This document shows positions 11,358 to 29,520 of a stretch of DNA of 45,542 nucleotides, piece after piece (positions within the stretch are counted from its first letter, which is position 1; each line of letters begins with the position of its first letter). A model generated the notes under the pieces. That model was not told the DNA's origin. It did no database searches and saw only the letters and a program-made list of their open reading frames with translations. This DNA comes from Macrostomum lignano. Its lineage: Eukaryota. The translations under genes were made by a program, and so were the position numbers. The stretch lies in NCBI GenBank assembly GCA_002269645.1, contig NIVC01004450.1, positions 1-45,542 on the forward strand. The letters run 5' to 3'.

Positions 11358-11614
11358 CTACTGCTGCAGGATTTGCTTTGGCTAGTGAAATATTTTGTTT
11401 TGGAATTTTGTTTTCCGGTAACAAGGTTAACTCAAACGTACAATGCTCAACGTACATCTTTAAACAAAAAGCGATATCTTCGCTCAATTCCGATCAATGG
11501 CTACTTTCCGCTACGGAAGCGATTCTCTGCTTTATCAAGTACTTGTTTTTGCTGTTTAGACCTCATCAAAACTGCACTGCTAATAAAAACTATACTTTAT
11601 CCGCAGTTTCAACC

Positions 11615-11717
11615 AGTAGTATACGTTTTTTTGACACAAAGCCGATTTCCTTATGGCGAAATACATAGTAAGTACAGGCCCAAAAAATGGCAGAGTCCGA
11701 AATTTCATGTGCACGCA
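11615..11717 (+). repeat. Maverick left TIR
   Basis: AGTAGTATACGTTTTTTTGACACAAAGCCG...; first 83 bp identical to the reverse complement of the right end. Confidence 0.95.
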
Positions 11718-12172
11718 GTCTGAAATTCCATGTGCACGCAGTCTGAAATTCCAAGTGCACGCTAAATATCTTTTACGCAACGTGATTATTCAGACGAATT
11801 GCATATCCACCTGTCCAAAATACAAGTAACCGATTCTAGCAATGGTGACACAAACACACTTCAAAGGATTCCATTCAAGACAAATTTACTCCAAAGCTAT
11901 TCACACATTTCAAGTGTTATTGAAATATTGAAAACTTGTGAATATTATCACCCTTTTGAAGAAAGATAGTAAATGATCTATTCTTGAGTGCCTATAGAAT
12001 TTTTGCACCAACTTGAGCAGATGGTTTACAGATACTATGTCAACAACTGCGTCAACATGCTTCTTCTTTATACTATATATATATACGAACACACTGACAC
12101 AGAAAATATTAAATAACTTAAACCAAGTTTACATTATACTACTTGTTCAACTATACTTACATCTTAAGTGAA

Positions 12173-12824
12173 ATGAAGCGATCACGTCAGCAGGAATTGG
12201 CCGAGCGCTATGTTAAACAAGGTAAGATAATCACCTACTCTAGTTCAGTTTTCTTTTTTAGATTGACTGTTCGCTATAGTTTAGTTTCTAGATTGATTGT
12301 TAGTTCGGTTTCTGTTTAGACCGATCCTCTGTTTGTTCAGTCTCTAGATTGATTGTCTGCTAGTTCGGTTTCTGTTTAGACTAATACTCTGCTAGTTCAG
12401 AATTTCTAGATTGATTGTCTGCTAGTTCGGTTTCTGTTTAGACTGATTCTCTGCTAGTTCAGTTTCTATATACATTGTATACATGCACCTATACCAAATT
12501 TCCCTCATCTTATCCATTATTATAGCATTCAAGAATGGTTTCTTCACGCGGCCACCTCCAGATCAGTGCAAACGCATTTGCCACGACACCACCACATCCA
12601 ATTCTGCTGCAAGAGCATCATATTCTACATCTCTCGCCAGAGTAACCTCGATTCATGTCGAGAGACAGACAACTGAGCTAGATCGCATTTACACAAGAAC
12701 TGATGTTATTCAGTCAATTAGGCAGCAATCGAACCCACGACCAACTGACCAACTGCAGTATGCACCACCACCACCATCACCAACCAGCTACAATGACCCA
12801 CCCAACAAAGCAAACTTGCAGTAA
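12173..12824 (+). CDS. Putative spliced ORF of unknown function (exons 12173-12221 and 12526-12824, ~115 aa)
   Basis: ATG at 12173, donor CAAG|GTAAGA, polypyrimidine acceptor TTATAG|CA at 12525. Phase 1 matches on both sides, giving MKRSRQQELAERYVKQAFKNGFF... Confidence 0.45.
12240..12470. repeat. ~60-bp degenerate tandem repeat within putative intron
   Basis: Recurrent CTAGATTGATTG(TCTG)CTAGTTCGGTTTCTGTTTAGAC units. Confidence 0.75.
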
Positions 12825-13294
12825 GCCTACAAGTACCAAACCAACGACAGCAACTGAAACACCATCATCATCAATTGCCATTTCTACCCAAGTTCAACCG
12901 CTGCTAAACTCGCCAATTATTGTACAGAAGGACATCAAGTCTGTAAAAGTCTCTCAAATGAGCACAGGCTTCTACCAAGTAGAATTAGCAAAGACCTGTA
13001 ATACAACTCAAGTATTTGAATATTGGGACCTATCTTAAAAAGACATTTTTTCTAACTCTTCATAAAATTTTGCCAGCAATGTGTCCAAGTAATTGCTCTT
13101 TTAGTATATATCAAACAAGTCTGTAATCAATAATATAATCTCTATAAATTCATTATTCTAAAAAATTCTTTCAATTTTATTCACCATTCATTGAAATTAT
13201 TTAATTCAATAAAAAGTCAATATCTTGTACAGTCATCATTAAACAAAAATTATTAATCCATGCAAATAATTTTTTTTTCATACGTTTCTTTAGC

Positions 13295-14190
13295 CATGGT
13301 CTGGCTTTTGCCTCAACAGTATGATTTAGCTGTGGTCCAGCTTTTGCCTCAACAGTATGATTTAGCTGTGGTCCAGCTTTTGCCTCAACAGTATGATTTA
13401 GCTGTGGTCCAGCTTTTGCCTCAACAGTATGATTTAGCTGTGGTCCAGCTTTTGCCTCAACAGTATGATTTAGCTGTGGTCCAGCTTTTGCCTCAACAGT
13501 ATGATTTAGCTGTGGTCCAGCTTTTGCCTCAACAGTATGATTTAGCTGTGGTCCAGCTTTTGCCTCAACAGTATGATTTAGCTGTGGTCCAGCTTTTGCC
13601 CAACAGTTTTTAGCCGTGGTCCGGCTTTTTTGCCTCAGCAGTATGATTTAGCTGTGGTCTAGCTTAAAACTGCATCAACAGTGATTTAGCTATAGTCCAG
13701 GCTTAACTACCTCAACGATGATTTAGCTATAGTCAAGGCTTAACTGTCTCAACAGTAATTTTAGCTGTTGTCCAGACTTAACTGCCTCAACAGTGATTTT
13801 AGCTGTGGTCCAGGCAACTGTCTCAACAGGGATTTAGCTGTAGTCCGATTAGCTTAACTGTCCAGTTATTTAGCTGTGAGCCAAGCAGCAGCACCCGTCT
13901 CAACAGTGAGAATTAGCTATGGTCAGCTTTACCTCAACTGTGATTTGGCTGCTGTGGTCTAGCATAACTGACTCAACAGTAATTTTAGCTGTAGTCGTCC
14001 AGCTTAACCACCCGTCCAGTTTTATAACCATGGTCCAGCTTAACCACCGTCTCAACGTACAGCGATTTAGTCGTGGTCCAGCTTAACCGTCTCAACGTAC
14101 AGTGATTTAGCCATGGGTCTAGTAGCAATTAACCGTATCAATAGTGATTTAGCCGTGGTCCAGCTTAACTGTCTCAACACAGTAATTTAG
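13295..14190. repeat. 36-bp minisatellite inside the Maverick, perfect then decaying
   Basis: About 8 near-perfect copies of CAGTATGATTTAGCTGTGGTCCAGCTTTTGCCTCAA (13317-13600), followed by progressively diverged copies to ~14190. Confidence 0.95.
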
Positions 14191-14816
14191 CTTAGTCCAA
14201 ACAGCATTTGTGTGTCAACTGCACTGACTGCATGCGGTTATAGCAGCGGCAGTCATTATAGTCCCAACAAGCTGCGCGTCGCAGCATGATAGTGTAACTC
14301 TATATAGCTTCTGCTCAATATAGGACTGCAAAAGCTGAGTTACAACTATACCTTTTTCTGTTTGAAAAGTAACACTCTATATATAGGTTACTCAAGCAAT
14401 CTCTTGTCACCGTGCGAGCTAAAAAATTCCAACATGCAAGCAAAACTTTCAATAAATTAATTTCATAGCACCGCGTGCAGCTTATTTTTACTCTAAAATC
14501 CAAGATTGCTAATTTTTCAAGTCGCAAAATATTTTAATTACATTCTACTTGAGAACAAAACCAATCTAATGAAGCAGCAACCAGCAGTCTTCTTATTAAA
14601 CGCTTGCCATCGTGTTACTCTTGCAAATTTATAACTAGTGTGCCTAAGATTCATTAATTTTATTGTATAAAATATCAACCTACATTTGCGTAAAATTAGA
14701 CCTAATCATGCAACCCACCCTAGAAACTTATGCCACCTTTGGCACGCAACAATGTCTTAATCAGCACGCAACAATTAAATTTGTTTACTAGTTCACAAAC
14801 AGCATGCAATGCTTGC

Positions 14817-14824
14817 TATAAATA
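14817..14824 (+). promoter_or_regulatory. Canonical TATA box candidate upstream of the SSB-like gene
   Basis: TATAAATA 85 nt upstream of ATG 14902. Confidence 0.4.
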
Positions 14825-14901
14825 CAAGACCCGAAATGTCAATTTTTCATGAGCTCAATCATTACAGCAAAAGAAATACTATATTCAATTGCTTGTAAGA
14901 C

Positions 14902-16100
14902 ATGGCAGCTTGCATCAAGACGGAGTCAATTGTACGCTCCGACTCGAGTCCGATTTTTTACGTTGGAGAGCAGTCTACAACCACGACTGGTTCGTCCTGC
15001 CAGTTTCGATCTATTGCGTGGAAACCATCAATCGAGTGTACAAAATGGTACCCAATTATATTGCAAACCAAGGCTCCAATGGAGCTTTTTCGTGGAATCG
15101 CAGAAAGGCCAGAGCTCGATCATCCGTCTTGCAGACACGACTCTCGCGACGCAGTAAGTGTCCAATTTCATCCAGACAGCTGCGATAAGGAACTCTTCCA
15201 CTCTCTCCGGTGAGCACCATATTAAATTTATACAATTAATTTTAGGAAACTATATTCATAATTTATATAATGTTTTGCAGTCAAGTCGAAAAAGGTCTAT
15301 CGGTCAAGTTGAACGAGATTCAAGATGCTCGACCCTTGGCACGACTAACAAAACCAGCTCATCAGCATGCTAACGACGTCCTCGAGTTTGTGCCTCAACA
15401 ATGGCTGGCTATAAAGCCTGCTTACCCTTGTGCCACAATCAGGATCAGCAACGATCATCCACACGGGAAGGAGGTGTCCATTTCCGATTTCAAAGGTGTC
15501 AGCGGTACCTACCAAATGACAGTGCAAGCAACGAGCTTGTATTGTCCAAAAGGCTGCCTCGTCTGGCGCATTACATTCGCTGTGCGCTCTCTGACACTCA
15601 TAGAATCTTCCGACAACATGTTGCAGCGCCTCGACATGTTCAAGGGAGTGCTTGCACACCTACCCGCGACCAAGTCAGCAATTAGAAGCAGGAGTCCGTC
15701 CCCAACATCTACCTGTGAGCAAGAAGAAGCAAATGAACAAAGCCTGCAGAATTCAAGCCAGGTGACACCTGCCAAGTCACCTGCAAAGCGTCGGTCTACC
15801 ACCACCGTATCGAAGAAGTCGACTACATCGAATGCAGCGCCAGCCTCTATTGAACCGCCGCCTAAAAAGCAAGTTCGAAAACGCAGCGGTGCAAAACAGC
15901 AAAACAATTCTGCCGAAGCTGGTGCAGATGGCACAGACTGGGTGGAGGCTCCACCAGCAAAGATCTTGGTGAGTACACCTGCCTCTGGAACCAGGGTAGC
16001 GTCCAAGGAGACAGCATTTTTAAAGCGTGCTGCTGCGGACGCTACTACAGCTAGCGTGTCTTCATCGGACGACTCGTACAGCAGCTCTGATGATGAGTAA
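14902..16100 (+). CDS. Spliced 375-aa protein, candidate OB-fold ssDNA-binding protein (exons 14902-15209 and 15281-16100)
   Basis: 71-nt intron CG|GTGAGC...TTTTGCAG|T with matching phase 2. PIILQT..M..FRG and GTYQMTVQATSLY...WRITF patterns recall T7 gp2.5/NCLDV-type SSBs. Basic linker and acidic tail SSSDDSYSSSDDE. Gene structure is well supported; the function is inference. Confidence 0.6.
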
Positions 16101-16310
16101 CAAAATTTTTGACTAATTTTATCCAAGTTTTAACTAACTTATTCCACTATATTTATCAAATTTTTGGCTAGGGAAATATTATTTTTTAGGGAAAAGCTCA
16201 AAACATTTTTTGCTACTCCTTGTACGCTAACCAGGTTTTGTAATTTAATATTAGAATTTACGATAGTATAGTCATGTTTAACTTTTCTTATTATTTATTT
16301 TCCGTTTTAG

Positions 16311-16868
16311 CGACTTGTCCTATTAATAGTTACTGCGAGTCTGAAGCTGCACCCGTTTGAAAAATTTGATTTAAAGCAGACCAAACAGAAGCTACAGACC
16401 AGAAACCGGTTTTGCAAACTATTCCTAAGCCGACCAACAATGCTAAAGACAATTTATTCAAATGCTAAAATCCAACTTTATCCAGCAGGAAAACTAACTA
16501 TATATGGCTGTAAATCAAATTCTCAGATAGTCTCAGTTTTACGATTTATCAACGACACTATTAATTGTGTAGATTTTGATTCAGTAAAAATTCAGAGCAG
16601 TACCTATGTCGGCTTTATTGGTCATCTTTGGCCAAAATTCGGTTTCTCTAGTCTAAAAAGATATGCAGGCTACTATTCGAATTATCTGGTTGGATACGAT
16701 GCAGAAAATTTCCCACAAGCAGTTTCTGTTAGATCAGCATCAAAACCAAGGCTTTTTTGTAACATATTTTTTTCGAAAAAGTTTGTTATTATGGGCGTTC
16801 AAAACACTCATGAATTGAATAATATTCTTAACCATGTCAAGGATTTTTTAATCTCTGTTAATAACTAA
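16311..16868 (+). CDS. Divergent TATA-binding-protein (TBP)-like protein, full two-repeat core; 5' exon not identified
   Basis: Frame is open from the splice acceptor TTTTAG|CGA at 16311. Repeat 1: LIVTASLKL..KFDLKQ...AKIQLYPAGKLTIYGCKS (TBP: NIVSTVNL..KLDLKT...TTALIFSSGKMVCTGAKS). Repeat 2: KIQSSTYVG...YDAENFPQ...KPRLFCNIFFSKKFVIMG (TBP: KIQNMVGS...YEPELFPG...KPRIVLLIFVSGKVVLTG). Confidence 0.8.
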   Translation, partial: RLVLLIVTASLKLHPFEKFDLKQTKQKLQTRNRFCKLFLSRPTMLKTIYSNAKIQLYPAGKLTIYGCKSNSQIVSVLRFINDTINCVDFDSVKIQSSTYVGFIGHLWPKFGFSSLKRYAGYYSNYLVGYDAENFPQAVSVRSASKPRLFCNIFFSKKFVIMGVQNTHELNNILNHVKDFLISVNN

Positions 16869-17090
16869 ACTTAACAAGTAAACAATTGCTGTCAAATCGC
16901 AGTTGCGATGCATTCTTTTACAAACATTTTGTCTTTTTTTTTTATTTACCAATTGTTTTCTCTAATAGTAAACGTGTCAGCTATACCTATAACTAACCAA
17001 ATCATCATTTTTCTTACAGCCGCAAATGACAAACCGGATCATCTATTAATATTATGCTCGATACGCTCGTTGTCGAGCTAGGTGCACACA

Positions 17091-18152
17091 ATGCCGCGTG
17101 CACAATGCCAAATCTGCAGAAAAAAGTTCAGTAATCAAGCCGAGCTGCATGCTCACTCGCATGGTGCTTGTTTTTCACCGCAACGATTACTGACCGGATC
17201 GCTGCAAAACCTGATCGAAAACCCACCAGATGGGTGGTCCATCGCTTTGCGCGAGTCAGCTCATCGTGGTCGGGTAAATTTTGTCGAATTTACTCCCACT
17301 CTTGAACAACAAGGCAACAGCTCTGGCGAGTTACTTCCTGGCGAGTTGATTGCGTCTTTAAGAGAACCAATATTTAAAATATTGGAAAAAATTGGCTCAC
17401 CCAGTTTATTAATAAGAGTCTGCTTTCACTTGAAAGTGACACTATTTCGACCGAAAACAGCAGCAGACGACAACGATGGCTCGAGCAGCGAAGAGATCAT
17501 TTCGGTCTATTTTAATACCAACATTGCGACAATATCATTTGATGAGACGATTGCAAACAGTGACATGCTGTTATCTCCCGAGGCCTACAATGACTGGTTC
17601 GCACGCGTTATTAATCAGTTGTTAATAAAAATTGACAATTTTCAATCTCGAGGTAGTAATTGGCAATATAGAGCAATCGAGCAGCTAGACTTGATGCTCT
17701 GCGTTTATCGCAAAAGCCATGCAAGCACACTGTCAACAAATACGTCCCACGGTGGTGTGGGGGCGGGCGGCGGCAGTGGTGGTGGTGGCGGCGGTGGTGG
17801 TGGTGGTGGTGGCGGCGGTGGTGGTGGTGGTGGTCGGCGGCGGCGGCGGCGGCGGCGGGCGCGGGGAGTCCGGTCCAGTCCGGTCCGGTCCAGTCCGGTC
17901 CGGTCTGGTTAAGCAGCAATCGTTTAAAGTTCCAGTCTCAATCGGTCGCAAAGCTGGAGCAGTACTGCTTCTAAAGCCGCACAGAGCAGTTTAAAGCATC
18001 AAGACTATTTAAGAGTCTTACACAAGCGACAACTTGTGTTTTCGCGCATGCAGTCCATTCGTTCTCGAAAACAGAAAGTTTTTTTTGATGCAACAAAGAA
18101 AACTTGCACTAAGCTTCTTCGATACGAAGCGATCCTGGACAAGTTCAATTAA
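17091..18152 (+). pseudogene. Protein-primed DNA polymerase B remnant: N-terminus fused to extreme C-terminus
   Basis: C2H2 finger CQICRKKF...HAHSH and the Maverick pPolB N-terminal motif F.SRGSNW...I..L.L. After a microsatellite, a shifted frame (~17965-18152) reads SKAAQSSLKHQDYLRVL...SIRSRKQKVF, resembling the pPolB C-terminal tail. No exonuclease or polymerase motifs lie between. Confidence 0.7.
17752..17907. repeat. Compound GGT/GGC, CGG and GTCCG/GTCCA microsatellite
   Basis: (GGY)n, then (CGG)n, then pentamer repeats, seen directly. Confidence 0.9.
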
Positions 18153-18481
18153 TTCGCTACCCTTTGGACACTGGCACTTGGCTAATTAATTAACAATATG
18201 CTCTGATCTCTTTTGTTGTACAAAGTAATAGCATGCTATAGAAGACTGTAACCCATCATTAATTTTTTCATTGATCATTATTTACAATAAATAAATGATA
18301 CCGGCATTCGTTTAAATTATAATTTTAGCACTTTTTTGTGTTTAATTATTTGAAAAAGTATATTTTTTATAGTTAGATTCTCAAGACTAAGCTTGTGTTT
18401 GTAGTAGACGTAAATGTAGTGCTATCGTTCATGTTTCAAGAAAAAAAACTTTTTTTTAAACTTTCAGCTACAAGAATCGAC

Positions 18482-18964
18482 ATGAATCCCGAGCAGCAGC
18501 AGCAACAACAACTAACTGATCGTAAGCTTTTAGTTGAACGTCTATACGATTCGGCAACGATTCCGACCCGAAAAACTGTCGGGTCGATCGGGTATGATCT
18601 TTGCGCTGGCGTCGATGGTACCATTCCGGCCTACGAGTCCCGGAGTGTGCGAACCGGACTCAAAATTCGCTTACCGCCTGGTACCTATGGCAGGATAGCG
18701 GGACGTTCCAGCATGGCTCTGCACAGCTTATTTGTTGGCGGTGGCGTAATCGACCCCGACTATACTGGTGAAATCTGTATAGTCTTGTTTAATTACAGTC
18801 CGGAAGACTTTGAGTACTATGCCGGGCTCAGTATTGCACAACTGGTTCTGGAGCAGGCCGTGCTTGCTTCAGTCTATGTGACTGAAGCAGACAATTCGAT
18901 TCGGATGATTGAGCCGCCGACCAAGCGGCGCGGCTTTGGCGGCTTTGGCAGCACTGGCCAATAA
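18482..18964 (+). CDS. dut: dUTPase (trimeric type)
   Basis: All five motifs: GYDL, GRIAGRSS, GVIDPDYTGEI, IAQLV, RRGFGGFGSTG. Likely ATG at 18482; the ORF caller used an upstream GTG. Confidence 0.95.
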   Translation: MNPEQQQQQQLTDRKLLVERLYDSATIPTRKTVGSIGYDLCAGVDGTIPAYESRSVRTGLKIRLPPGTYGRIAGRSSMALHSLFVGGGVIDPDYTGEICIVLFNYSPEDFEYYAGLSIAQLVLEQAVLASVYVTEADNSIRMIEPPTKRRGFGGFGSTGQ

Positions 18965-19055
18965 GTATAATAATAATAATAAACTGATTTTTTTCTTTGG
19001 TGATTGGTGCACTATGCGAGAGCTTTGTAAATACTATAAGCAATTTTAAAAATTT

Positions 19056-19499
19056 ATGCCTAAAATATATGTTGTAAAAATGTCTCCAGCGAAAGATCGA
19101 GGTTTTAAAAAGAAAAAGAAGAGCATTCGTAAAAAGAAGAAATCTATTAGAAAGATTAATAAAAAGCAACAAGGTTATGGTGTCGTAAATTGGTTAATTA
19201 ATCATTTACCATTTGAAGCACATTTACCCGGCGGATATCAGTTTTGTGGTCCAGGTACGCAACTGCAAGCTAGGCTAGCAAAAGGACAACGAGGAATTAA
19301 TCGGCTTGACAATTTGTGCATGCTTCACGACGTGGCCTATGATAAAAATTCTGACGTGCAAGAGAGGTTAAAAGCTGATAAGCTATTAGAATCTGGTGCA
19401 CGAGAGATTGCCCACGATCCGTCTACTGGTTGGAAAGAAAAACTAGCTGCGAAGTTGGTTACCAAGGTTATGCAAGTTAAGCAACGCCTTATTGCTTGA
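19056..19499 (+). CDS. Parvovirus-VP1u-type phospholipase A2 virion protein (PLA2X-like)
   Basis: HLPGGYQFCGPGT calcium loop and LDNLCMLHDVAY catalytic HD. Lys-rich N-terminus followed by QQGYG. Confidence 0.9.
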   Translation: MPKIYVVKMSPAKDRGFKKKKKSIRKKKKSIRKINKKQQGYGVVNWLINHLPFEAHLPGGYQFCGPGTQLQARLAKGQRGINRLDNLCMLHDVAYDKNSDVQERLKADKLLESGAREIAHDPSTGWKEKLAAKLVTKVMQVKQRLIA

Positions 19500-20211
19500 A
19501 AATGCAGCAGCCATACAATATGCAACTAGCTCACGATTCTACATTTATTATGCTGGACCTTCAAACTCGGGTAAAACTGAATGGACGTTGCGTTTGTTGA
19601 CTGAACGAAAAGAATTATTTGATAAAAAACCGTGCCGTCTTGTTTGGTGCCATGGATCAAGTTTGAAACCAGACGATCAACAACGAATTAGAACATGCTG
19701 GCAAAAAAGCGGTCTTGACCCTATTGTTTTTGTACCCGAATTCACACCACAGATGATTAATCGTTTTTTACCACACGATTTGGTTGTTGTTGACGACTTG
19801 CAAAGCGAGATTGCTAAGTTGCCAGAATTTACTAGTATGTTTACAAAGCATGCGCATCATATCCCTTTGACTTGTCTGTACCTTTGTCAAGGTCTTTTTA
19901 ACAAGTCTGATCCAGAAGCACGCATGCGAAGTTTATCAGCTAGTTATATTTGTCTAACTCGTAGTGTGCGCGATCGAACCACAGTTGAACATCTCGGTCG
20001 ACAAATGTATCCGCGTAATAGTAGGTTTCTAGTGAATGTGTATGAAGACGCAACAAATAACAAACCTTTTTCATATTTATTCATTGACCTGCGGCAAGTG
20101 ACACCAGATTTTTTACGATTGAGAACAGGAATATTTCTGGTGATGAACAAGTTGTCTATACTCGTGAATGTGATGCAAAGTTTGTGTAATATTATTATAA
20201 GCAAATTATAA
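19492..20211 (+). CDS. FtsK/A32-like DNA packaging ATPase
   Basis: Walker A GPSNSGKT, Walker B VVVDDL, and C-terminal KPFSYLFIDL...RLRTGIF typical of Maverick ATPases. No in-frame ATG before Walker A. Confidence 0.92.
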   Translation: MLENAAAIQYATSSRFYIYYAGPSNSGKTEWTLRLLTERKELFDKKPCRLVWCHGSSLKPDDQQRIRTCWQKSGLDPIVFVPEFTPQMINRFLPHDLVVVDDLQSEIAKLPEFTSMFTKHAHHIPLTCLYLCQGLFNKSDPEARMRSLSASYICLTRSVRDRTTVEHLGRQMYPRNSRFLVNVYEDATNNKPFSYLFIDLRQVTPDFLRLRTGIFLVMNKLSILVNVMQSLCNIIISKL

Positions 20212-20246
20212 ACTGTTGTCAATATTAGTTTGTGTTTTATTTCAAA

Positions 20247-21236
20247 ATGAGTTTTTACGTTTTTTTGCCGTCAAACGATATCAGTTACGAAACCAACTCG
20301 CCTAATGAATTTCGAGTGCGACTAACTGAACCAATAAATTTATTGAACGGATTCTTCGAGGTTGCACTAGTTGAATTACTGTGCCATGGAGCAATTACGA
20401 CGCCAAATGCTCATCGTGAGCGTCGATTTGAAGTTCCATATTTTGCGGACATTGACTCAATAATACGATTAAAGAAAAACTATTGGGGTCGTGTTTGGGC
20501 AGAGGCAGACTTGGATGCTTACGTTTCCTGGCAACCGTCTGGTACAGATGAAAAATTTGCCTGGCTTTTACGAAATTCAGGCGAAAAAACTATTGGATTA
20601 GAACTACCAGTTACATTTATGGACGCTTTCAAATTTGACTCTTGGAAGAAACTTTCTGGACTTGTCTCGGAAAAATTATCAAAACCTGCCGCTGGTAGTG
20701 TACAACCACCGGATGGTTCATACTTGGATTTGATAAAAAGTCTCGACAATACTCTAGCGCTAGTACCTGAGAACTATTATGTTTTTTATTGTGTTCTATC
20801 GCCTGGTGAAGCTATACGACTTGTTTCGCATGGAGACTATCTTCGAAAAACGGAAGGAGAAGTGTACATCAAAGTACACCAATATTGGTTGAGAAATCGT
20901 GTTTGGCGCATTAACAAAACCTACTTGGATGCTGTGCTACCTTCTCCGATGCCTAGTAAAACGGTTTACATGTACTGTTACACAGATATAATCGAGTATC
21001 AAGCAGTGGGAAGTACATCAGTACCGTTGCTTCGAGTTGTGGAACTCCAACAAAAGAAAAACGGAGAACTTATACGCGATAGCAGTGCATTGCAAACACC
21101 CTACTACTTGAAAACAAATCGACAACAAATTCACGAGATTTCGATTCGACTATCGGACCAGCGCGGAAAACCGTTTAATTTTGATCCGGGAGCACACGTT
21201 GTTGTCGTACTGCATTTTAAACATAGGTCGGACTAA
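20247..21236 (+). CDS. Minor capsid protein (penton, single jelly-roll)
   Basis: N-terminal MSFYVFLPSN...FRVRL..PI.L...FEVALVE and C-terminal YCYTDIIEYQ.VG....PLLR...ISIRL.DQ.G..F.F....VVVVLHF match Maverick pentons. Confidence 0.88.
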   Translation: MSFYVFLPSNDISYETNSPNEFRVRLTEPINLLNGFFEVALVELLCHGAITTPNAHRERRFEVPYFADIDSIIRLKKNYWGRVWAEADLDAYVSWQPSGTDEKFAWLLRNSGEKTIGLELPVTFMDAFKFDSWKKLSGLVSEKLSKPAAGSVQPPDGSYLDLIKSLDNTLALVPENYYVFYCVLSPGEAIRLVSHGDYLRKTEGEVYIKVHQYWLRNRVWRINKTYLDAVLPSPMPSKTVYMYCYTDIIEYQAVGSTSVPLLRVVELQQKKNGELIRDSSALQTPYYLKTNRQQIHEISIRLSDQRGKPFNFDPGAHVVVVLHFKHRSD

Positions 21237-21292
21237 TTTATAAGCAAAGATTAATTGTGTAATAGAAAATTTTGTGAATTTGTTTTGTAAGA

Positions 21293-21725
21293 ATGAGCGA
21301 ACTAACAGAAAAAGGAAAACAAAATGCTCGCTCATTGTGTCAGTGTGCTTTTTTACTACAAATTGTTTATCGGCTAAAGCATCCAAAGCAGAGAAAAAGT
21401 TTTTTACAAACACTTTCAGAGTCGGAGATACGATGTCTAGTAGACTTTCTGTTTAATATTATTAGTGGACGTATTAAAATTAGTAACTGTAACAAAAGAC
21501 GACTCGAGAAGCATCGCAGATATAGCTATACGCCAGCTTTTGGAACAGAAGACTCCAATTACTGCAAAAAGGAAAATACTTGTCCAACACGGATGATTTT
21601 TACCTTTTTTGGCTCCAATTATTGCCGCTCTACCTGCTATAAGCACTGCGCTTGGGATAACGTCTGGAGTAGTTGGTACCGCCGCGGGAGCAGCGAATTT
21701 AATACGATCAATTCAACGAAAGTAG
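21293..21725 (+). pseudogene. Maverick small basic core-type protein (PW/cupiennin-like; naming uncertain) with frameshift and nonsense codon
   Basis: RKSFLQTL...IRCL...NII.G.I....KRRLEKH, then a +1 shift near 21520 gives AIRQLLEQK..ITAKRKILVQHG*FLPFLAPIIAAL...RK*. TGA at 21594 sits where GG|F is expected. Confidence 0.8.
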
Positions 21726-21735
21726 TAGGAATATA

Positions 21736-22425
21736 ATGCGAACTAACGAGAGTAGTAGTTTTCAACGAATGTATCTAGTACCTGAATCTGTGTATCAATC
21801 TGCATGTCAAGGTGCAGAGCAAGGATCGTCACCAACTGCTGAGACACCTCGAAAAACTGAAGTTTTAGACGCACCGCAAGATGCTCTGGCAAAAAATATG
21901 GTGGAAATGAGAGACCAAATGGATAACTTGGACAAGGAAATGGAAAAGGAGCCAAATTACACAGCTCAATTGAAACGAAGCAGATTGGAAGACAAACTTT
22001 TAAAATTGCGCAAAGTCTATCGCACTGGAGACGAGGACAATCTGTCACTTGTTCGCAAAGGGACTACTGTAAGAAGTTCATATGCCAGCGAATCAAGGGA
22101 AATTCCTAAAGTTTTTTTACCACGTTTCGAAGCTCTCGCTCAAAACCTATTTTCGGACATGGACAAGAATGCAGAACCAATGCTGGCTAATTTGACTGAT
22201 GCCGAGATACAAGATCTCATGGAATATGTTGTTCGAGACAGACCGCTTAAGCGACACGAGACTCAACCGCCTAGTGGACTAAAAACATTTTTAGACTTTC
22301 TTCGAAAACGTGGAATCGCAGCAAACCAAATCGGGCGTCATGTACGAAACGAGCTAATGTCTGCTCCAAAAACTGTTGCAAAGGAGGATCTTAGTCTGTT
22401 TGAAAATTATCAAACACTGAATTAA
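21736..22425 (+). CDS. Conserved Maverick ORF (PZ-like; naming uncertain), 229 aa
   Basis: N-terminal RMYLVPE and C-terminal PPSGLKTFLDFL...QIG patterns recalled from Maverick ORFs; position in the virion block. Confidence 0.55.
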   Translation: MRTNESSSFQRMYLVPESVYQSACQGAEQGSSPTAETPRKTEVLDAPQDALAKNMVEMRDQMDNLDKEMEKEPNYTAQLKRSRLEDKLLKLRKVYRTGDEDNLSLVRKGTTVRSSYASESREIPKVFLPRFEALAQNLFSDMDKNAEPMLANLTDAEIQDLMEYVVRDRPLKRHETQPPSGLKTFLDFLRKRGIAANQIGRHVRNELMSAPKTVAKEDLSLFENYQTLN

Positions 22426-22526
22426 GTTGTTTTAAATGTTTTAACAAAATTGATTCGAGCACTATAAGCTTTTTAAAAAGGTTACTTTTTTGTTTATTAA
22501 AAATATATAGTTTAATAAGACAAACC

Positions 22527-22715
22527 ATGTCATCTATCTTCCAAAAACTTTTGATTCGTCTCTGTGAGTTTTTTTGCATAAAATCTGAATGTGTGCCGTT
22601 TCTGGGAAAGGAGCACAACGAGGATACTGACGGAGATTCGATCGAGGCTTCGTTCTTTTGTTGCAACTGTCAAACGACTAGCATCAATCTAACTGATGAT
22701 GAAGCGAGTGCGTAA
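22527..22715 (+). CDS. Small Cys-rich/acidic ORF, 62 aa, unknown
   Basis: ATG-initiated, preceded by TATAAGC at 22463, and overlaps the integrase start as neighbouring genes do. Confidence 0.35.
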   Translation: MSSIFQKLLIRLCEFFCIKSECVPFLGKEHNEDTDGDSIEASFFCCNCQTTSINLTDDEASA

Positions 22716-23856
22716 GGAAATTGAAGAATTTTTGACGGATTCTTTTTTTAACTTGAACAAGCCTACTTCATTTAGTGGTAACAAGACTATACTTGTTCGT
22801 TAAGTACGTAAAAAGTTTCCACAGATTACGAACAAAGTTGCAAAGCGCGAAGTTGATAATTGGGTGCGATCAACAAATGAGCATCATTTATTTCGAAAAA
22901 CACGACGAAACTTTCCAACTCCAAAAATTAGTGTGCCACCAGTTGCAAAGTTTCAGTTTCAAATCGATTTGGCAGATTTACCTCAATACAAGACGGAAAA
23001 TCGAGGTTATCGTTACATACTTGTTCTTATCGACTGTTTTACTAGAGTTGTACGACTAAGACCATTGCGTACAAAGAAGCCTTCAGAAGTTAGTCAAGTA
23101 TTACTAGAGATTTTTCGAAGTGGTTTTAAGCCTGTTTATTTACAAGGTGATGCTGGTATGGAGTTTCTCGGAAGAGCTACACGTCAAATGCTGAAACAGG
23201 AAGGAGTTCGATTTTTTGTTAGCCAAAGCAATTACAAGGCAAGCATGGCTGAACGATTTATCCGCTCGTTAAAGGAACGTCTATTACGATACTTTCGAGC
23301 AAAAAATTTACCTCGATGGTTTGACATTTTGCCACAATTGGAAGATAATTTCAACTCTAGTCCTCATCGATCCTTGAGTGGAGAAACACCAAAACGTGTA
23401 GAGACAGACCCGCATTTACAAGGAATTTTGTGGGACAAAATGTTTGCGAAGTCGTACACTAAAAATAATGAGAATAAATTTAAAGTTGGTGATTGGGTTA
23501 GAATTACACGACGTCGAGGAACATTTGAAAAAGGATACACTACGACTTGGAGTAATTCAAAATATCGCATTCAGCGTGTACACTTGACAGACCCGCCAAT
23601 GTACGAATTAGTGGACCCTGAAGATGGATTTGAAGTGCTGAAAGGAAGGTTTAACCAAGCGGAACTAATGTTGGTAAACGAGACAGATGAAACACCTAAT
23701 GAAATTGAAAAAGTTATTGAAACTGATCGAGCGAAAAATGGAAGTCGTCTGTATCTAGTAAAATGGAAAGGTATGCCAATCTCAAGAAGTCAGTGGTTAA
23801 ACGAAAATGATCTTGACGCAAAGACTGCTAAACTATTTTCTAAAGTGTATAAGTAA
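22696..23856 (+). pseudogene. Retroviral-type (rve) integrase with C-terminal chromodomain, premature stop at codon 36
   Basis: DDE motifs QIDLADL, LQGDAGMEF and SMAERFIR; chromodomain YLVKWKG...SQW. ATG at 22696 is in frame and encodes the conserved F...KPTSFSG N-terminus, but TAA lies at 22801-22803. Confidence 0.92.
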
Positions 23857-23897
23857 CACATGAATTGGGATTGCATGACGAAGAGAAGACTGTTGAA

Positions 23898-24356
23898 ATG
23901 GATCCTATTTTTGCTTTTTATTCTGGTCCGAATAGATCTGCTGAAGGTGGAGGTGGATATGGCATTCCTGTTTACGAAGGTTACGGTTTTTTGTCAAATT
24001 TGGCGGACAGATTGGTGTATCCTGTACTACGCAACGCAAAGAAAGATTTCTTGGATCGTGGTCTGGAGTATTTGAAAAGTGCGACAGCAAAAATTGGTAT
24101 GGGTCGGAAGCGTCACTTGGACACAGAATCGAGCGAAGAGATGTTTAATACACCTGCAGTCTCGAGACCAAAGCGAAGGAAAAGAACCAGTGGAGTGGCT
24201 ATAAGCTTAGGAAAGAAGAAACGGCAAAAGAAACGACGAACAAGACAGTGTGGAAAGGGACGCGTGAACAAAAGAAAACGCAAGATTACCGGTGGTATAG
24301 GAAAACGTCGAACTGCTACTGCAAGCAAGAAACTTTTTAGTCTGTTTGAAAAGTAG
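23898..24356 (+). CDS. Basic Gly/Arg/Lys-rich core (genome-condensing) protein
   Basis: Y..P...G.GYG.PVY.GYGF..L...L.PVL N-terminus and highly basic C-terminus, located immediately before the capsid gene. ATG at 23898. Confidence 0.7.
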   Translation: MDPIFAFYSGPNRSAEGGGGYGIPVYEGYGFLSNLADRLVYPVLRNAKKDFLDRGLEYLKSATAKIGMGRKRHLDTESSEEMFNTPAVSRPKRRKRTSGVAISLGKKKRQKKRRTRQCGKGRVNKRKRKITGGIGKRRTATASKKLFSLFEK

Positions 24357-24357
24357 C

Positions 24358-25680
24358 ATGAACCATTTGCTTGGACCTGATATTGCTGCTCTTAAAAGTG
24401 AATTGTCGCTATTTGATCAAAGTCCTGTTCAGTTTAGTGTTTTGGATAATCGATATACTAACATTCAACCGCAACATGGTATTACAAAAGGATCACCTAT
24501 CGAATTTGAAGTTGTGCCTGCAGGCGATTTGTATTTGGATCTACAAGAAACTGTGCTCACGGTATGCTTCAGCGTTAGTGATAGTGAAGGTGAACCTATA
24601 GATGCAACGAAAAATTTTGTTTGTTTGAATAATTTGGTTATTGGAACATTGTTTGAAGACGTTCAATTTACTATTGGCGATACTGTAGTTGAAGGTGGTA
24701 GTTTTATGTATCCATACAAGGCTATGCTTCTCACATTACTGGAATATGGACATACAGCTCAGAAGGCTGGTTTACTGCCGTGGGGGTTTTACAAGGATAC
24801 AGCTGGTAAAATGAATGCAACAAGTGAAAACGATGGACGAACAAAGAGGCAGGCGCTCATTGCTAACAATAGGCGGTGCACTGTATCGGGGCCGTTATTC
24901 TTGGATTTGTTTCGTCAGCCTCGGTATCTACTATCAAAGACACCACTATGGATCAAGCTCATACCGGCAAAAAGTAAATTTGTCCTGAGCGGGTCAACAT
25001 TAGAAGCTGGTGCGGTTTTAAAAGACTATGAGATCAAGTTTTTGCGTGCAGAACTACGATTGCGGTTTGTTCAACCCTCGCCGAGTGTTATCAGTGCACA
25101 TGCTCATGGACTTAAAAGTCACAATGCATTATATCCGCACCGAAGTCTAAGCCTTGGTACGTTTACTATACCCCGAGGATCGTCTAGCCATACGCATGAA
25201 AATTTGTTTCCTAGTGGGGTACCACGGCTTTTATTGATGGCAATCGTAAGCAACAAGGCATTCAATGGAAGCATGGACACAAATCCGTTCAACTTTGAGC
25301 ATGCAAATGTGAGCAGCATTGGTGTGTTTGTGAATGGAGACTCGGTACCATCGCGTCCGCTGCAGACAAACTTTGGAGATGATTGTGTGACAGAGTATAA
25401 TTTTTTGCTACAACAGCTTGGAATCTATCTACAGGGACGAGATATTGGATTTAATATGCTGGATTACGCCAATGGTTACTCAATTTTTGCATTCAGTCTT
25501 GGAAGTGAACCTGGTGTCGGACGGGGAGTGCAACTGTATAAGGAAGGAAATGTAAAACTAGAGTTACGCTTCAATGCTGCAACTAGTACCGTGTACAACG
25601 TCATATTTGGAGGTATATTTGACAAGCAACTGCAACTGACTGAACTTCGCGACATTGTTCCTGGCACAGTATGGAAGTAA
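24358..25680 (+). CDS. Major capsid protein (double jelly-roll, hexon-like)
   Basis: ELSLF...PVQ.S...PIEF.V...D.YLDL..T N-terminus; GPLFLDLF.Q.RYL; FNF.H.NV..I...VNG; ~440-aa open frame. Confidence 0.93.
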   Translation: MNHLLGPDIAALKSELSLFDQSPVQFSVLDNRYTNIQPQHGITKGSPIEFEVVPAGDLYLDLQETVLTVCFSVSDSEGEPIDATKNFVCLNNLVIGTLFEDVQFTIGDTVVEGGSFMYPYKAMLLTLLEYGHTAQKAGLLPWGFYKDTAGKMNATSENDGRTKRQALIANNRRCTVSGPLFLDLFRQPRYLLSKTPLWIKLIPAKSKFVLSGSTLEAGAVLKDYEIKFLRAELRLRFVQPSPSVISAHAHGLKSHNALYPHRSLSLGTFTIPRGSSSHTHENLFPSGVPRLLLMAIVSNKAFNGSMDTNPFNFEHANVSSIGVFVNGDSVPSRPLQTNFGDDCVTEYNFLLQQLGIYLQGRDIGFNMLDYANGYSIFAFSLGSEPGVGRGVQLYKEGNVKLELRFNAATSTVYNVIFGGIFDKQLQLTELRDIVPGTVWK

Positions 25681-26234
25681 TTGATTCTATCCTAGATCGT
25701 GGTGTAACAGATCGCTTCCTTCGCAATGTTGTATCGAAATTGTGCGCACATTTTTTAAATGTTGTATTTCTTGGTGTTTTTCCTCAAAACTTTGTTGGTG
25801 GACTTGCACGCTTACCTTTAGACGGTAAAGACTATTTTTTTATCGTTAATACTGACGTCTCCAACCTGCCCGGAAAACATTGGGTATGCGTTTGGGTTTA
25901 TGGTCATCGAGCAGGTCGCGGTAGCAAACGACTTGGTGAATATTTTGATTCTCTTGGTCTAGTACCATTGCCAAGAATAGCAAAATGGCTAGGAAAAGAA
26001 TGTGGAAATTCGAAAAATTGGTGTTATAGTCGCTTTGCTATCCAAGACCCACAGAGTGGAAGTTGTGGATTTTGGGTAATTTTTTATATTTTTCATAAGT
26101 TGACTATCAGAGGAAACCTAGAGTGTTTTATTCGAAGCGTTTTTAAACGGAATATAATTCGCACTGGTTCGTTTCGATACTTGTATGCTAAATTACGCAA
26201 TTTTGTTTTACGAGTGCTGCCTCAATATTTGTAA
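25671..26234 (+). CDS. Adenain-like cysteine maturation protease
   Basis: FLGVFP, IVNTD....GKHWV (His), EYFDSLG (Asp), Q...SGSCG (Gln/Cys); overlaps the MCP stop codon. Confidence 0.93.
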   Translation: MEVIDSILDRGVTDRFLRNVVSKLCAHFLNVVFLGVFPQNFVGGLARLPLDGKDYFFIVNTDVSNLPGKHWVCVWVYGHRAGRGSKRLGEYFDSLGLVPLPRIAKWLGKECGNSKNWCYSRFAIQDPQSGSCGFWVIFYIFHKLTIRGNLECFIRSVFKRNIIRTGSFRYLYAKLRNFVLRVLPQYL

Positions 26235-26468
26235 ACTCGCTAATTTGTGCGTCAAATTGTGTTTGTATCTAGTTGAAATATACAATACTGCTTGAAAAGA
26301 AGAATTTAAATGCGTTAAGTTATACGCGAAATAAGCTTTGTGTCAAATTGAATTTTGGTTGGGCTTGTAATTAGCAGCATTCATTGCGGATAGAATTTAG
26401 GTGGATAGACAGGTGTTTGCGTAAAAGTGATTCAGCTAATTGGTTAATTCATTGCGTAAAAGCTAGTT

Positions 26469-26571
26469 TGCGTGCACGGCAAATTTCAGACTCTGCCATT
26501 TTTTGGGCCTGTACTTACTATGTATTTCGCCATAAGGAAATCGGCTTTGTGTCAAAAAAACGTATACTACT
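26469..26571 (-). repeat. Maverick right TIR
   Basis: Reverse complement of 11615-11717 with 4 mismatches, ending ACTACT. Confidence 0.95.
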
Positions 26572-27154
26572 GCGGTCTGCACTCCGAATCGTGAAAAATA
26601 AAACAAAAAATTCACTGGCTCTGAAGTGCGTAAAATGCGTACGCAAGTTGGCAGACATTCGGAGTACAGAAGAGAAAGAATAGCCCAGACTGCGGACAAT
26701 CGAGGCGCACACAACTACAGTGCATTGCACAGCGGTCTACGCTCAGCACTGTGACGAATTCGAGCCATTGCTGTGCGCATAGAAAAGAACTTTGGTACCG
26801 CATTTCGGCCCACAGAATCTGCCTGCTTGCAAGGACAAAAAAGAGATGACTAACCAGAGCTGCTGTAGCTGGTACGAGTAGTAAAATTTTTTAAAGACAA
26901 ATCGCGTCAGTGCGTTGCGTTGCCATGCAGGTGAGAAAGTAGGCTGCTTTCCTGTATTAGTATTTTGCATGACGATTCCATGAACTTTGTTTTATACATT
27001 CTAAGTTTGATGACCATTTATTTTATTAGGACGCTCAGGGGTCAGTGCTGCAGCAAGACAACGAGCAACAACCGCTGCTGCCGGAGAGAAAGGTACACTA
27101 AATATCCCCTCAGAAGGTATTTAAAAGATATACAGTATATAAAGTGTACCTCTG

Positions 27155-27455: not shown

Positions 27456-27564
27456 TCACCCCCTAATGAATGCAACCCTGAATCCGGGTTGTAAGCAGCG
27501 GCAACTACTAGCGTATTTGAGTTTTCAACTCTGTTTTTCCCCGCAGACAGCCGCATCTGCAGAA

Positions 27565-29520
27565 ATGAGCGTGGTGTGGAAGATCGCGGGCATCGCACTT
27601 ATTTTTGCACTGGTGTCGTTTGCCTGCGTTGTGGAGCTTCGAGCCTACGAGCAGAGCCAGAGGGATGTAATCTGCAACGAGGGCGAGTGCCACAGGTCAC
27701 CAGAGGTCAACAGCACCAGGCACAAGGAGGTTTGGTTAGCGTGCCTGTCCTCCAGGTGTTTTCTTGCGTCGCTGGCGTTGGTTGCCATGGTAACCCTGGA
27801 GTGTGTAGCTCTAAGACATAGAATAGTTGATTCTGTGAAAATTGGCAGCGTGCTGATTAAAAATTTCCCATCTTGCGTCAAGGGAACGCCCGAGCTCTGC
27901 AGCCTGCCGTCCGATCTCCTCGTCAAGGCGTTTTGGCTCTTCGCCATCCCGAACTGCCTGTCGATGGGGATCGAGGTCGGCTGCGAGATCGATGAAATCT
28001 TGAAACACAAGGAGTGGGAGTCTCACTCCGCAACCATGATTGCCTGGCGGGTACTGCTGTTCCTCTGTACCATTGTTCAGATCCGACTGGTAGCCAAGTA
28101 CGCATTCCAGTCCATTCAGCTGAGGCTGGGACTCTCCTGGATCATCCTGTCCGCCATCATGTCATTCAACATAGCCGTGTGGTTCTCCACCATCGGCCTG
28201 GAGGTTCAGGGCATCAACGGCGCAGAGAAGGTGATTCCGAAAGGCTCCAATTGCGACGAGAACTCGTTGGGTCATTTCAACGAGCTGCTGTACCCGTTTC
28301 AAATTGAGTACTGCGTCATGGGCTCTCTGATGGCCTTCACGCTGATGTCCAACCTGGGCAGGGTGGCGAATCACCTGCAGAGGCAGCATTTTCCCGATTC
28401 AGACGCTGTTGAAAGGAAAATCAAAGAACTGCTGCAGCCTGCAGAAAGCATGACCACACACCGACAATTCTTGCCCAACTTCGAGGTCATTCGTCAGCAT
28501 TCGTTAATATTTGTCGCCGAGCTGCTGCTGCTTATCCTCTCAGTGGCCTGTGTGGCGTTCGTGCGCTTTGACGATCCGAACAACAGCGTCAGAGGCATTG
28601 TCTTCAACTTGACGCTGCTGTTGTTGCATTGCTTTGGGATGGCGACTCTCCTCATCATGTGTTGCTACATCAGAGGCGACAACAAGCAAAAGATCAGCGC
28701 CACGCACTTTCCTGACCGGTTGCTGCTGTGGCTGGGCACAGCCGCCATCCTGCTGAACAGCGTGTACAGGCTGTGGGGCAACACAAACGTGTTAATTTTG
28801 GAGGGCAATAGAGTTGAGAATACGACCGACCACAGCGTGCCGGAGTACCCGATGGTCTCGCGAAATCTGACCGAGGCCAATAAAATCAGACTGGAACTGC
28901 AGATTGGCAACGCGATATCCAACTTAGTTCAGAGCGCCGCTCAGACCGCTCTGCTGGAGTGGATCCTGATCAGCAGGTTCTCAAACCACAGCAAGCTGAC
29001 CGAATGGTGCAAAAGTCTCCTACGGTTACAATCACAACCACGTCAGGACCAACCACGTCAGGACCAACCACGTCAGGACCAACCACAACGTCAGGACCAA
29101 CCACAACGTCAGGACCAACCACGTCAGGACCAACCACAACGTCAGGACCAACCACAACGTCAGGACCAACCACGTCAGGACCAACCACAACGTCAGGACC
29201 AACCACAACGTCAGGACCAACCACATCAGGACCAACCAATTAGTCCCAAAATCTGCGCCCTGCTCAACCTTCTGATGGTGATCAACGGAGCTGAATGGAT
29301 TCTGAGCGCCCTGTGCTTCCCGTTCTTCTTTCCTGAGGATCAGAAGGACGCCCTCTCGCTACTGCTGACGCCGCTGCAGGTGTTCTACGCGTTCCACTCA
29401 GCCATTTGCATTCACGACTTCAAAGGGCATCTGAAAATGGAGGCCGCTGAAGCCGATGACGAGCAAGTTGCAGAGGATCCATTGGCTGTTAATTTTGAAA
29501 ACATCTTCGGTCAAAACTGA
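27565..29520 (+). CDS. Otopetrin-like proton channel, intronless coding region
   Basis: Multi-TM protein with LLYPFQIEYC (family LYPF.IEY), LVQSAAQT, INGAEWI and QVFYAFHS (family FYRFHS). Likely ATG at 27565 follows a splice acceptor at 27546. Confidence 0.85.
   Translation: MSVVWKIAGIALIFALVSFACVVELRAYEQSQRDVICNEGECHRSPEVNSTRHKEVWLACLSSRCFLASLALVAMVTLECVALRHRIVDSVKIGSVLIKNFPSCVKGTPELCSLPSDLLVKAFWLFAIPNCLSMGIEVGCEIDEILKHKEWESHSATMIAWRVLLFLCTIVQIRLVAKYAFQSIQLRLGLSWIILSAIMSFNIAVWFSTIGLEVQGINGAEKVIPKGSNCDENSLGHFNELLYPFQIEYCVMGSLMAFTLMSNLGRVANHLQRQHFPDSDAVERKIKELLQPAESMTTHRQFLPNFEVIRQHSLIFVAELLLLILSVACVAFVRFDDPNNSVRGIVFNLTLLLLHCFGMATLLIMCCYIRGDNKQKISATHFPDRLLLWLGTAAILLNSVYRLWGNTNVLILEGNRVENTTDHSVPEYPMVSRNLTEANKIRLELQIGNAISNLVQSAAQTALLEWILISRFSNHSKLTEWCKSLLRLQSQPRQDQPRQDQPRQDQPQRQDQPQRQDQPRQDQPQRQDQPQRQDQPRQDQPQRQDQPQRQDQPHQDQPISPKICALLNLLMVINGAEWILSALCFPFFFPEDQKDALSLLLTPLQVFYAFHSAICIHDFKGHLKMEAAEADDEQVAEDPLAVNFENIFGQN
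29032..29238 (+). repeat. In-frame 15/18-bp coding repeat (QDQPR/QDQPQR)
   Basis: CAGGACCAACCA(CAA)CGT units within the otopetrin-like ORF. Confidence 0.95.

Follow-up and report, generated by a model that had tools for sequence, protein, structure and literature searches.

A TBP-like protein and a conserved TATA-like box before virion genes in Maverick elements of Macrostomum lignano

Gene regulation in Mavericks is poorly known, and how such an element could time the expression of its capsid genes without a helper virus is the question raised by a locus of the flatworm Macrostomum lignano. The stretch of DNA analysed here, which we call the window, is the whole contig NIVC01004450.1 (45,542 nucleotides (nt); C4450 in the 764-Mb assembly), and a Maverick of 14,957 bp occupies positions 11615-26571 of it, with its genes on the + strand. 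The element encodes a divergent relative of the TATA-binding protein (TBP), and a TATAAG motif recurs ahead of its virion genes. A sequence-only reading of the window had proposed from these features a self-contained late-transcription system with the motif before each virion gene. This was too strong: there are six conserved sites for about ten genes, and the rule of one motif per gene breaks down at the packaging ATPase, which has none, and at the integrase, which has none of its own. Nor is the system self-contained, since no polymerase or TFIIB gene was seen in the element, so that factors of the host's RNA polymerase II (Pol II) must be used. Judged by comparison with related elements, the box and the TBP-like protein are nevertheless real and conserved, and together they may represent a further form of the viral TBP-mimic strategy.

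The box in the window and in sister families

Rescanning of the virion arm (18960-26240) returned the eight + strand TATAAG hexamers that the sequence-only reading had counted, each 21-158 nt before a different ATG (Table 1), against one on the - strand. Dinucleotide shuffles of the arm gave 1.83 +/- 1.37 copies and reached eight in none of 1000 trials, and a stricter shuffle of synonymous codons gave a mean of 3.1 and reached eight in one of 300. TATAAGC is the top-ranked 7-mer of the arm (6 observed, 0.41 expected) and TATAAG ranks fourth among its hexamers, while the left arm (11614-18959) has no TATAAG. Across the whole window there is no enrichment (17 observed, 20.9 expected), so that the excess over matched composition holds in the arm but not beyond it, and the signal is strand-specific as well as local. 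The tetramer TAAG by itself is under-represented in the arm (24 versus 34.7).

The positions could be compared with four sister families of the same genome, B to E, the window element being family A; the major capsid proteins (MCPs) are 66-80% identical. One or two copies were taken per family; the arm halves of B and C come from different copies, and the two family-D loci were linked to each other by further matching. The TBP-like gene is present in each of the five families, its products being 39-46% identical, and four-fold sites are 22-36% identical between families, which means that inter-family DNA is saturated. With the slot rule taken from the sequence-only reading (TATAAG 21-170 nt before eight named starts, a motif defined on the window), 23 of the 32 slots of families B to E are filled, whereas codon shuffles (n=300) fill 3.6 on average and never more than 8. 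The penton, PW and MCP slots are filled in four families, the phospholipase A2 (PLA2)-like, small open reading frame (ORF) and core slots in three, the protease slot in two and the PZ slot in none. If TATATG is allowed, the PLA2 and small-ORF slots rise to four of four and TATAWG fills 25/32, whereas canonical TATAAA occupies 2/32 (shuffle mean 2.6) and TATATA 1/32. Conservation of position thus extends to six slots, with a consensus of TATAWGYAA from 29 sites in families A to E (the first six positions being fixed by site selection), and it does not extend to the PZ and protease slots. The PZ site at 21638, present in 0/4 sister families, and the protease site at 25537, where coding constraint operates (2/4 versus a shuffle mean of 1.4), were rejected as conserved boxes. 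The core box is partly coding-constrained (3/4 versus a shuffle mean of 1.0).

Box and start are separated by 29-64 nt in the conserved slots, with one case of 88 nt and with 124-165 nt for MCP, and the spacing clusters at 41-54 nt. Families A to E together have 32 sense and 2 antisense sites, and 22 of the 32 lie 26-90 nt before a start, an interval chosen post hoc that makes up 7.8% of the DNA. No site is preceded by TA (0/32), and the boxes were accordingly rejected as TATATAAG in a shifted register. The MCP box reads xxT-ATA-AGC within the core-like coding sequence (CDS) in 5/5 families, where the protein is otherwise poorly conserved. That the boxes are products of chance or of coding is an account that does hold for two sites, PZ and protease, and in part for a third, core, and the whole-window count is unremarkable, but codon-preserving shuffles fill at most 8 of the 32 slots against the 23 observed, many boxes are intergenic, and the account is contradicted for five of the six conserved sites; we regard it as extremely improbable.

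The genes are tightly packed, and this raises the question of whether the motif belongs to the gene behind it, as a 3'-end, termination or RNA-processing signal whose nearness to an ATG would follow from the packing. The PW box does lie within -4 to +11 nt of the upstream stop in 5/5 families, and the penton box at -9 to -15 nt in the three families measured. The PLA2 and MCP boxes are not similarly placed: the former lies 71-152 nt beyond the stop of the gene before it, with an AATAAA preceding it in the window, and the latter about 160 nt inside the upstream CDS. As the sequence is moreover TATA-like in every lineage with a clear box, a 3'-end function seems to us quite improbable. Boxed genes other than MCP have spacers of 34-102 nt ahead of them and unboxed genes of -9 to 7 nt; the unboxed genes and MCP abut or overlap the preceding gene. 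Upstream of PLA2 in family D, the TATAAG box is repeated several times by a duplication of 111 nt (L063:620-815).

The TBP-like protein and the boxes of other lineages

That the element encodes a divergent TBP-like protein, as had been read from the sequence, is borne out by a Pfam TBP match (E 2e-7) and by a modelled saddle fold with a predicted local distance difference test (pLDDT) score of 95.1 from a 9-row alignment. Every one of the top Foldseek matches listed, as far as rank 44, is a chain that contains TBP (E 6e-10, template modelling (TM) score about 0.70-0.76). A homologue search with the short ORF as a single protein gave no match; a profile search returned 103 database proteins, with an RPxM loop in 83 of them and the KRFAA loop of the host in 0/103. 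On the model, the element encodes a full two-repeat TBP saddle with a conserved but altered DNA-binding face. Residues were mapped with host TBP (L073) as reference and yeast numbers from PMC12529657, Table 1. The protein is about 23% identical to host TBP, has no N-terminal extension and does not keep N69, N159 and F99. The lineage of the window element (type 1) retains F190, P191 and F207 and has Tyr for F116, so the four intercalating Phe of the TBP family are not all present, and its DNA face is changed by L114Q in 8/9 proteins and by V122T, V161T and L205N in 9/9. In the stirrup, E188 is invariant in 18/18 aligned proteins and E186 is D, E, N or S. The acidic C-terminal stirrup is the TFIIB contact in TBP, and the invariant E188 suggests that this contact is retained. 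The C-terminal repeat of TBP touches the 5' half of the TATA box and the N-terminal repeat the 3' half, an assignment that would fit a box with TATA kept and WGY altered. A TBP tree had strong support for 3 of 15 branches, with long-branch joins, and is uninformative on origin or co-evolution. The genome also holds intronless host TBP (C70, C713, C1301) and a second two-repeat TBP-family locus (73 bits; C350, C3090, C3513), possibly a TBP-related factor (TRF), and its matches to host TFIIB are split by introns.

Other Mavericks carry TBP-like genes together with boxes of their own. A second lineage (type 2; C100, C906) has a TBP-like gene with a Pfam TBP E of 8e-25, PolB (Pfam DNA_pol_B_2) and the box TTAAGAA, which occurs 6 times in sense and 0 times in antisense in 5.6 kb and lies within 200 nt of six of the eight starts. 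The TBP gene is itself one of these and may be self-regulated. A nuclease-like ORF without Pfam match, presumably of the DEDD type, precedes it (L074:4211-5300), and a similar ORF is found in the metagenomic locus L087. A third lineage (type 3; C261, C1070) has TATAAATA before 6/8 genes (6 sense, 0 antisense) and a TBP-like ORF of 157 aa, which is open in many copies, 78% identical between subfamilies, and aligned to type 1 by hhalign with a probability of 73% and E 3e-5. It is the most eroded of these proteins, with no F207 and P191 equivalents. Folded alone it gave a pLDDT of 43.5 and no Foldseek match at E <0.001, TBP chains filling most of the top ranks, and it had no atlas match; its identity as TBP-like would rest on hhalign, position and motifs. 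At C261:112484-122657 (L065, L067), type 3 is a 10-kb, multicopy element bounded by inverted repeats, with an integrase, a virion module and the TBP-like gene; no PolB was seen in these 10 kb. In L087 the box is TATAAACA (9 sense, 0 antisense), before 7/11 genes and five times at 36-39 nt. TTAAGAA, the TATAAATA of type 3 and the TATAAACA of L087 were each reached in 0/300 codon shuffles and show low cross-occurrence. Both distant MCP clades of the genome carry TBP-like genes, as do 9 of the 14 metagenomic Polinton capsid loci found with MCP (about seven lineages), the remaining five being fragments of 1.0-4.4 kb with no TBP match. Two family-D copies with no TBP match were considered as a TBP-less control and rejected, being 100% identical to TBP-bearing copies. 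Taken together, the sequences support the view that from one Maverick lineage to another both the TBP and the box paired with it differ.

These variants also bear on how the box would be read. The boxes of types 1 and 2 contain DTAAG, TAAG is recognised by the baculovirus polymerase (PMC4893493) and a few boxes lie only 11-29 nt from the ATG, all of which would suit a TAAG initiator for the RNA polymerase of a helper virus, in the style of baculoviruses or of virophages that copy the late promoter of a giant virus, with the TBP gene unrelated to it. The slot, however, is filled in families B and D by TATATG, with no TAAG, the boxes of type 3 and L087 have none either, and neither the depletion of TAAG in the arm nor the clustering at 41-54 nt is what an initiator predicts. 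We rejected the initiator on these grounds, as highly improbable; what the sequences support is a box that would act in a TATA-like manner, about 30 nt before a short leader.

A two-stage programme and its rivals

We consider it fairly probable that the TBP of the element drives the late genes together with host Pol II, in a two-stage programme that borrows the host polymerase. Early on, the canonical TATAAATA at 14817, which the sequence-only reading had correctly placed in the left arm, would be read by host TBP, and cis-splicing together with trans-splicing of the spliced leader would divide the left-arm RNA into messages, that for the TBP-like protein beginning at an AG acceptor and receiving its first Met from the AUG at the end of the leader. 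Late on, six start sites would each have element TBP sitting on a TATAWGYAA some 30 nt upstream, its conserved C-terminal stirrup recruiting host TFIIB and Pol II. The ATPase, PZ, integrase and protease genes, which have no box, would be second cistrons of the boxed gene that they abut or overlap. Such a programme implies that element TBP prefers TATAAGCAA over TATAAAAG; the binding itself, the contact with TFIIB, the timing, the start sites, the origin of the Met and the expression of second cistrons are all steps that we infer.

Expression was read from assembled contigs of four runs, whose status as RNA is a guess. The joint of the GT..AG intron at 15210-15280, which preserves the frame, is present in three of the four. 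In run X8 the loose ends of two contigs join one common leader at the AG acceptors 17019 and 18467, and this leader matches the published spliced leader of M. lignano, which ends in ATG (PMC5173321). Leader joins on the PolB and dUTPase messages suggest an operon organisation of the left arm. The TBP frame starts at 16311, 43 codons ahead of its first ATG (16440) and directly after a pyrimidine tract and AG, and TBP frames of type 1 (5/5) and type 3 likewise open at an acceptor-like AG with no ATG, followed in type 1 by an Arg codon. A Met donated by the AUG of the spliced leader is the simplest and most likely reading of this arrangement; the start may alternatively originate in an upstream cis exon. 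No leader joins are listed for the virion arm in the contigs of the four runs, a weak negative given that contigs drop rare forms.

A number of observations weigh against a dedicated element TBP. Raw counts are modest: pooled over families B to E there are 24 TATAAG against 12 under codon shuffling, only about twofold, so that it is position that carries the signal, and counts of single families were reached in 10-31 of 300 codon shuffles. The penton, PW and small-ORF boxes are as near to the stop of the preceding gene as to the start of the following one. In the protein, the first intercalating Phe, F99, is lost (Pro, in the RPxM loop, where the alignment is uncertain), and no leader join was found at the TBP acceptor 16310, which contigs of runs X5 and X6 cross unspliced. 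Among the other lineages, L078 has a TBP-like ORF and no clear box in five genes, the box of L077, TTAWGCA (6 sense, 2 antisense), is weaker and was picked by eye, and the type 3 box TATAAATA is the same as that of the left arm of the window, so that early and late boxes would be alike in that case. No TBP-less Maverick was found among the lineages examined in the genome and the metagenome loci, and scans of viral contigs yielded nothing. Finally, TATAAGA and TATAAGT drove expression in HeLa cells like miniCMV (PMC13732139), and, according to the titles of the entries, crystals of wild-type TBP have been obtained with the variants G(-26), C(-25) and also T(-30).

The last two points, together with a report that A-to-G at the sixth position is tolerated by the cellular machinery (PMC2396422), favour boxes that are real promoters read by host TBP/TFIID, the lineage-specific box stemming from a founder promoter put to use again and again, with element TBP as a helper or as a decoy that ties up TFIIB, NC2 or Mot1 or blocks host promoters. 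Host TBP would then have to read both TATAAGCAA and CTTAAGAA. The combination in type 3 of a canonical box with the most eroded protein, and the better conservation of the stirrup than of the DNA face, point in the same direction. With DNA at saturation, however, free replacement by canonical boxes would be expected, and TATAAA fills 2/32 slots against 25/32 for TATAWG; within type 1 the changed residues of the DNA face hardly vary, the TTAAGAA of type 2 deviates at two positions, and TATAAGC is not among the tested variants in the available passages of the sources. We therefore see host reading of the boxes as possible but unlikely.

A box served by the element's own TBP has its closest counterpart in the viral TBPs (vTBPs) of beta- and gammaherpesviruses: ORF24 of KSHV (Kaposi's sarcoma-associated herpesvirus), BcRF1 of Epstein-Barr virus (EBV) and UL87 of human cytomegalovirus (HCMV), which serve a TATT late box (PMC12529657, PMC4893493). 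The two systems have in common the TBP fold, a TATA-like box of non-canonical sequence ahead of structural genes, use of host Pol II and a DNA face that is polar at L114, V122, V161 and L205, where KSHV ORF24 has S, N, N and S (PMC12529657, Table 1). The likeness is known at the level of the fold, and we claim no homology beyond it. KSHV ORF24 keeps all four Phe, whereas the Maverick protein has no F99 equivalent; unlike the vTBPs, the latter is a bare saddle of 185 aa that retains the TFIIB stirrup and is not known to have partners, and the variation in its box falls in the 3' half (positions 5-7) and not at position 4. EBV BcRF1 binds TATA and TATT alike in vitro (PMC4893493). By sequence, types 1 and 2 combine a TBP mimic with a non-canonical box at structural genes, as in the viral preinitiation complex (vPIC), but neither the five further viral activators nor the Pol II-binding domain of the herpesvirus vPIC was recognised among the element ORFs, and the system would at most work like a vPIC without being a member.

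With cellular TBP/TRF (PF00352) the protein shares the two-repeat saddle, the YxxExFP stirrup, F190 and F207, and differs from them in being mobile and multicopy. Short motifs shared by virion genes are likewise found in the TAAG late promoters of baculoviruses and the late motifs of virophages, yet there the reader is a viral RNA polymerase that acts at or close to the start site, whereas the Maverick spacing is TATA-like and no polymerase is encoded here. Mavericks, Polintons and adintoviruses (PMC8502044) share with the element the terminal inverted repeats (TIRs), the rve integrase and a PLA2-type gene, and probably also a protease, an A32-like ATPase and ORFs resembling MCP and penton; the window copy differs in having lost most of PolB and in lacking a target-site duplication. 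The same paper bears on the impression that Mavericks had not been described with a transcription factor of their own. A TBP does appear there, only as a gene label in the legend of a MELD-virus figure, and the word promoter is absent from the main text; as for the pairing with a promoter, titles and abstract openings in the literature revealed no Polinton TBP with its own promoter, although subscription papers, figures, bioRxiv supplements and Repbase may hold more. The parts seen of a 2026 preprint on PLVs make no mention of TBP.

More broadly, we would tentatively entertain a one-protein late switch throughout a large Polinton branch, in which a fast-evolving TBP paralogue and a TATA variant private to its lineage (TATAWGY, TTAAGAA, TATAAACA and others) diverge together, the coexistence of a number of these codes in one host genome yields natural altered-specificity TBPs, and the flatworm factor takes its start codon from the host spliced leader. 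If true, this would be a second and much simpler origin of the beta/gammaherpesvirus vTBP strategy, apparently convergent at the same four DNA-contact positions, and would provide a natural series of TBP-box pairs for the study of TATA specificity. The TBP-like ORFs at metagenomic capsid loci suggest that the feature may be common, and a defined factor with a defined 9-bp box in a host with public RNA data makes it testable.

The element and its surroundings

The termini of the element read AGTAGT...ACTACT, and TIRs ending in AGT...ACT define Mavericks/Polintons. A 6-bp target-site duplication is also expected for them; in this copy the flanks, when compared, differ. Their usual gene set comprises a protein-primed PolB, a retroviral-type integrase, a packaging ATPase, a protease of adenoviral type, and a penton and an MCP of the double jelly-roll kind. 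The left arm runs from the two-exon gene to the dUTPase and is closed by an AATAAA at 18978, after which the virion arm runs from the PLA2-like gene to the protease, in the order of Table 1. The single-stranded DNA-binding (SSB) label of the two-exon gene is a lead, not confirmed: Pfam and PHROG gave no match, and its atlas matches (<0.9) are to clusters in which DUF2738 is found in 10% of members and Pox_I3 in 12%. For the penton, PW, PZ, core and MCP genes there was no Pfam, PHROG or PDB-sequence match; their labels are assumed from the sequence-only reading and from general Maverick gene sets, and those of MCP and penton also rest on gene order and on homologues that sit in integrase/ATPase/protease cassettes. 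The family E homologue of the ATPase matches Pox_A32 at E 0.002, under the curated cut-off.

Table 1. Coordinates of the Maverick features in the window
Feature	Position	Strand	Remarks
Terminal inverted repeats	11614-11717 and 26469-26572	+ and -	104-nt arms, 96% complementary
Candidate early promoter, canonical TATAAATA	14817-14824	+	heads left-arm unit; putative function
Two-exon gene	14902-16100	+	intron 15210-15280, reading frame preserved
Pyrimidine tract and AG acceptor	16281-16310	+	opens TBP frame; no in-frame ATG upstream
TBP-like gene	16311-16868	+	185 codons, two-repeat saddle; Pfam, model, Foldseek
AG acceptor with spliced-leader join	17018-17019	+	precedes polymerase remnant; one X8 contig loose end
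PolB-type N-terminal remnant	17091-17912	+	remainder of gene missing in this copy
dUTPase	18431-18964	+	Pfam E 1.5e-29; leader-joined acceptor 18466-18467
Box TATAAGCAA before PLA2-like gene	19035-19043	+	TATAWG in 4/4 sister families
PLA2-like gene	19056-19499	+	Pfam E 3e-9
Packaging ATPase	19502-20211	+	frameshifted here; abuts PLA2; no box
Box before penton-like gene	20196-20204	+	4/4 sister families, 46-54 nt
Penton-like gene	20247-21236	+	label without library match
Box before PW-like gene	21239-21247	+	4/4 sister families
PW-like gene	21293-21736	+	frameshifted in this copy
TATAAGC before PZ-like gene	21638-21644	+	0/4 sister families; probably chance
PZ-like gene	21736-22425	+	label without library match
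Box before small Cys-rich ORF	22463-22471	+	TATAWG in 4/4 sister families
Small Cys-rich ORF	22527-22715	+	followed by integrase-chromodomain gene
Integrase-chromodomain gene	about 22700-23856	+	rve E 4e-8; internal stops here
Box TATAAGTAA before core-like gene	23848-23856	+	overlaps integrase stop; 3/4 families
Basic core-like gene	23898-24356	+	label without library match
Box inside core-like CDS	24200-24208	+	158 nt before MCP; 4/4, 124-165 nt
MCP-like gene	24358-25680	+	label from gene order and homologues' cassettes
TATAAGG inside MCP, before protease	25537-25543	+	Tyr-Lys-Glu codons; 2/4 vs shuffle mean 1.4
Protease	25671-26234	+	Peptidase_C5 E 0.035, under curated cut-off

The window copy is defective, most of PolB being gone, the ATPase and PW genes frameshifted and the integrase interrupted by internal stops. 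The polymerase remnant, which we take from its motifs to be a protein-primed PolB, stops in a GC-rich low-complexity tract (17760-17910). Two longer family-A copies break PolB at the identical place and likewise hold only the N-terminal remnant, so the family probably spread as a non-autonomous derivative that retained the TBP; a PolB-type C-terminus is visible in family C. The TBP-like protein matches 22 places of the assembly at 100% over its full length, a count that haplotype duplicates may inflate, and the family is accordingly young. Variation in family A amounts to 6 synonymous and 3 non-synonymous differences among 30 loci, with 4 indel copies set aside. Decaying tandem 30-nt repeats run along the non-coding left end of the element (13260-14200).

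Outside the Maverick, the window holds what is presumably a mariner-type transposon at 2226-4323, with inverted repeats of 223 nt and, on the - strand, a split transposase, and short inverted-repeat elements resembling miniature inverted-repeat transposable elements (MITEs) at 6023-7086 and 10578-11357. To the right lie, both on the - strand and labelled by inspection, an intronless 684-aa multi-pass membrane ORF (27466-29520) and a broken tyrosine-recombinase-like ORF (30225-31112). A host gene at 34767-40442 (-), which we assume to resemble 2-oxoglutarate dehydrogenase E1, has introns built of tandem repeats and is followed by a 23-nt satellite at about 41000-43200.

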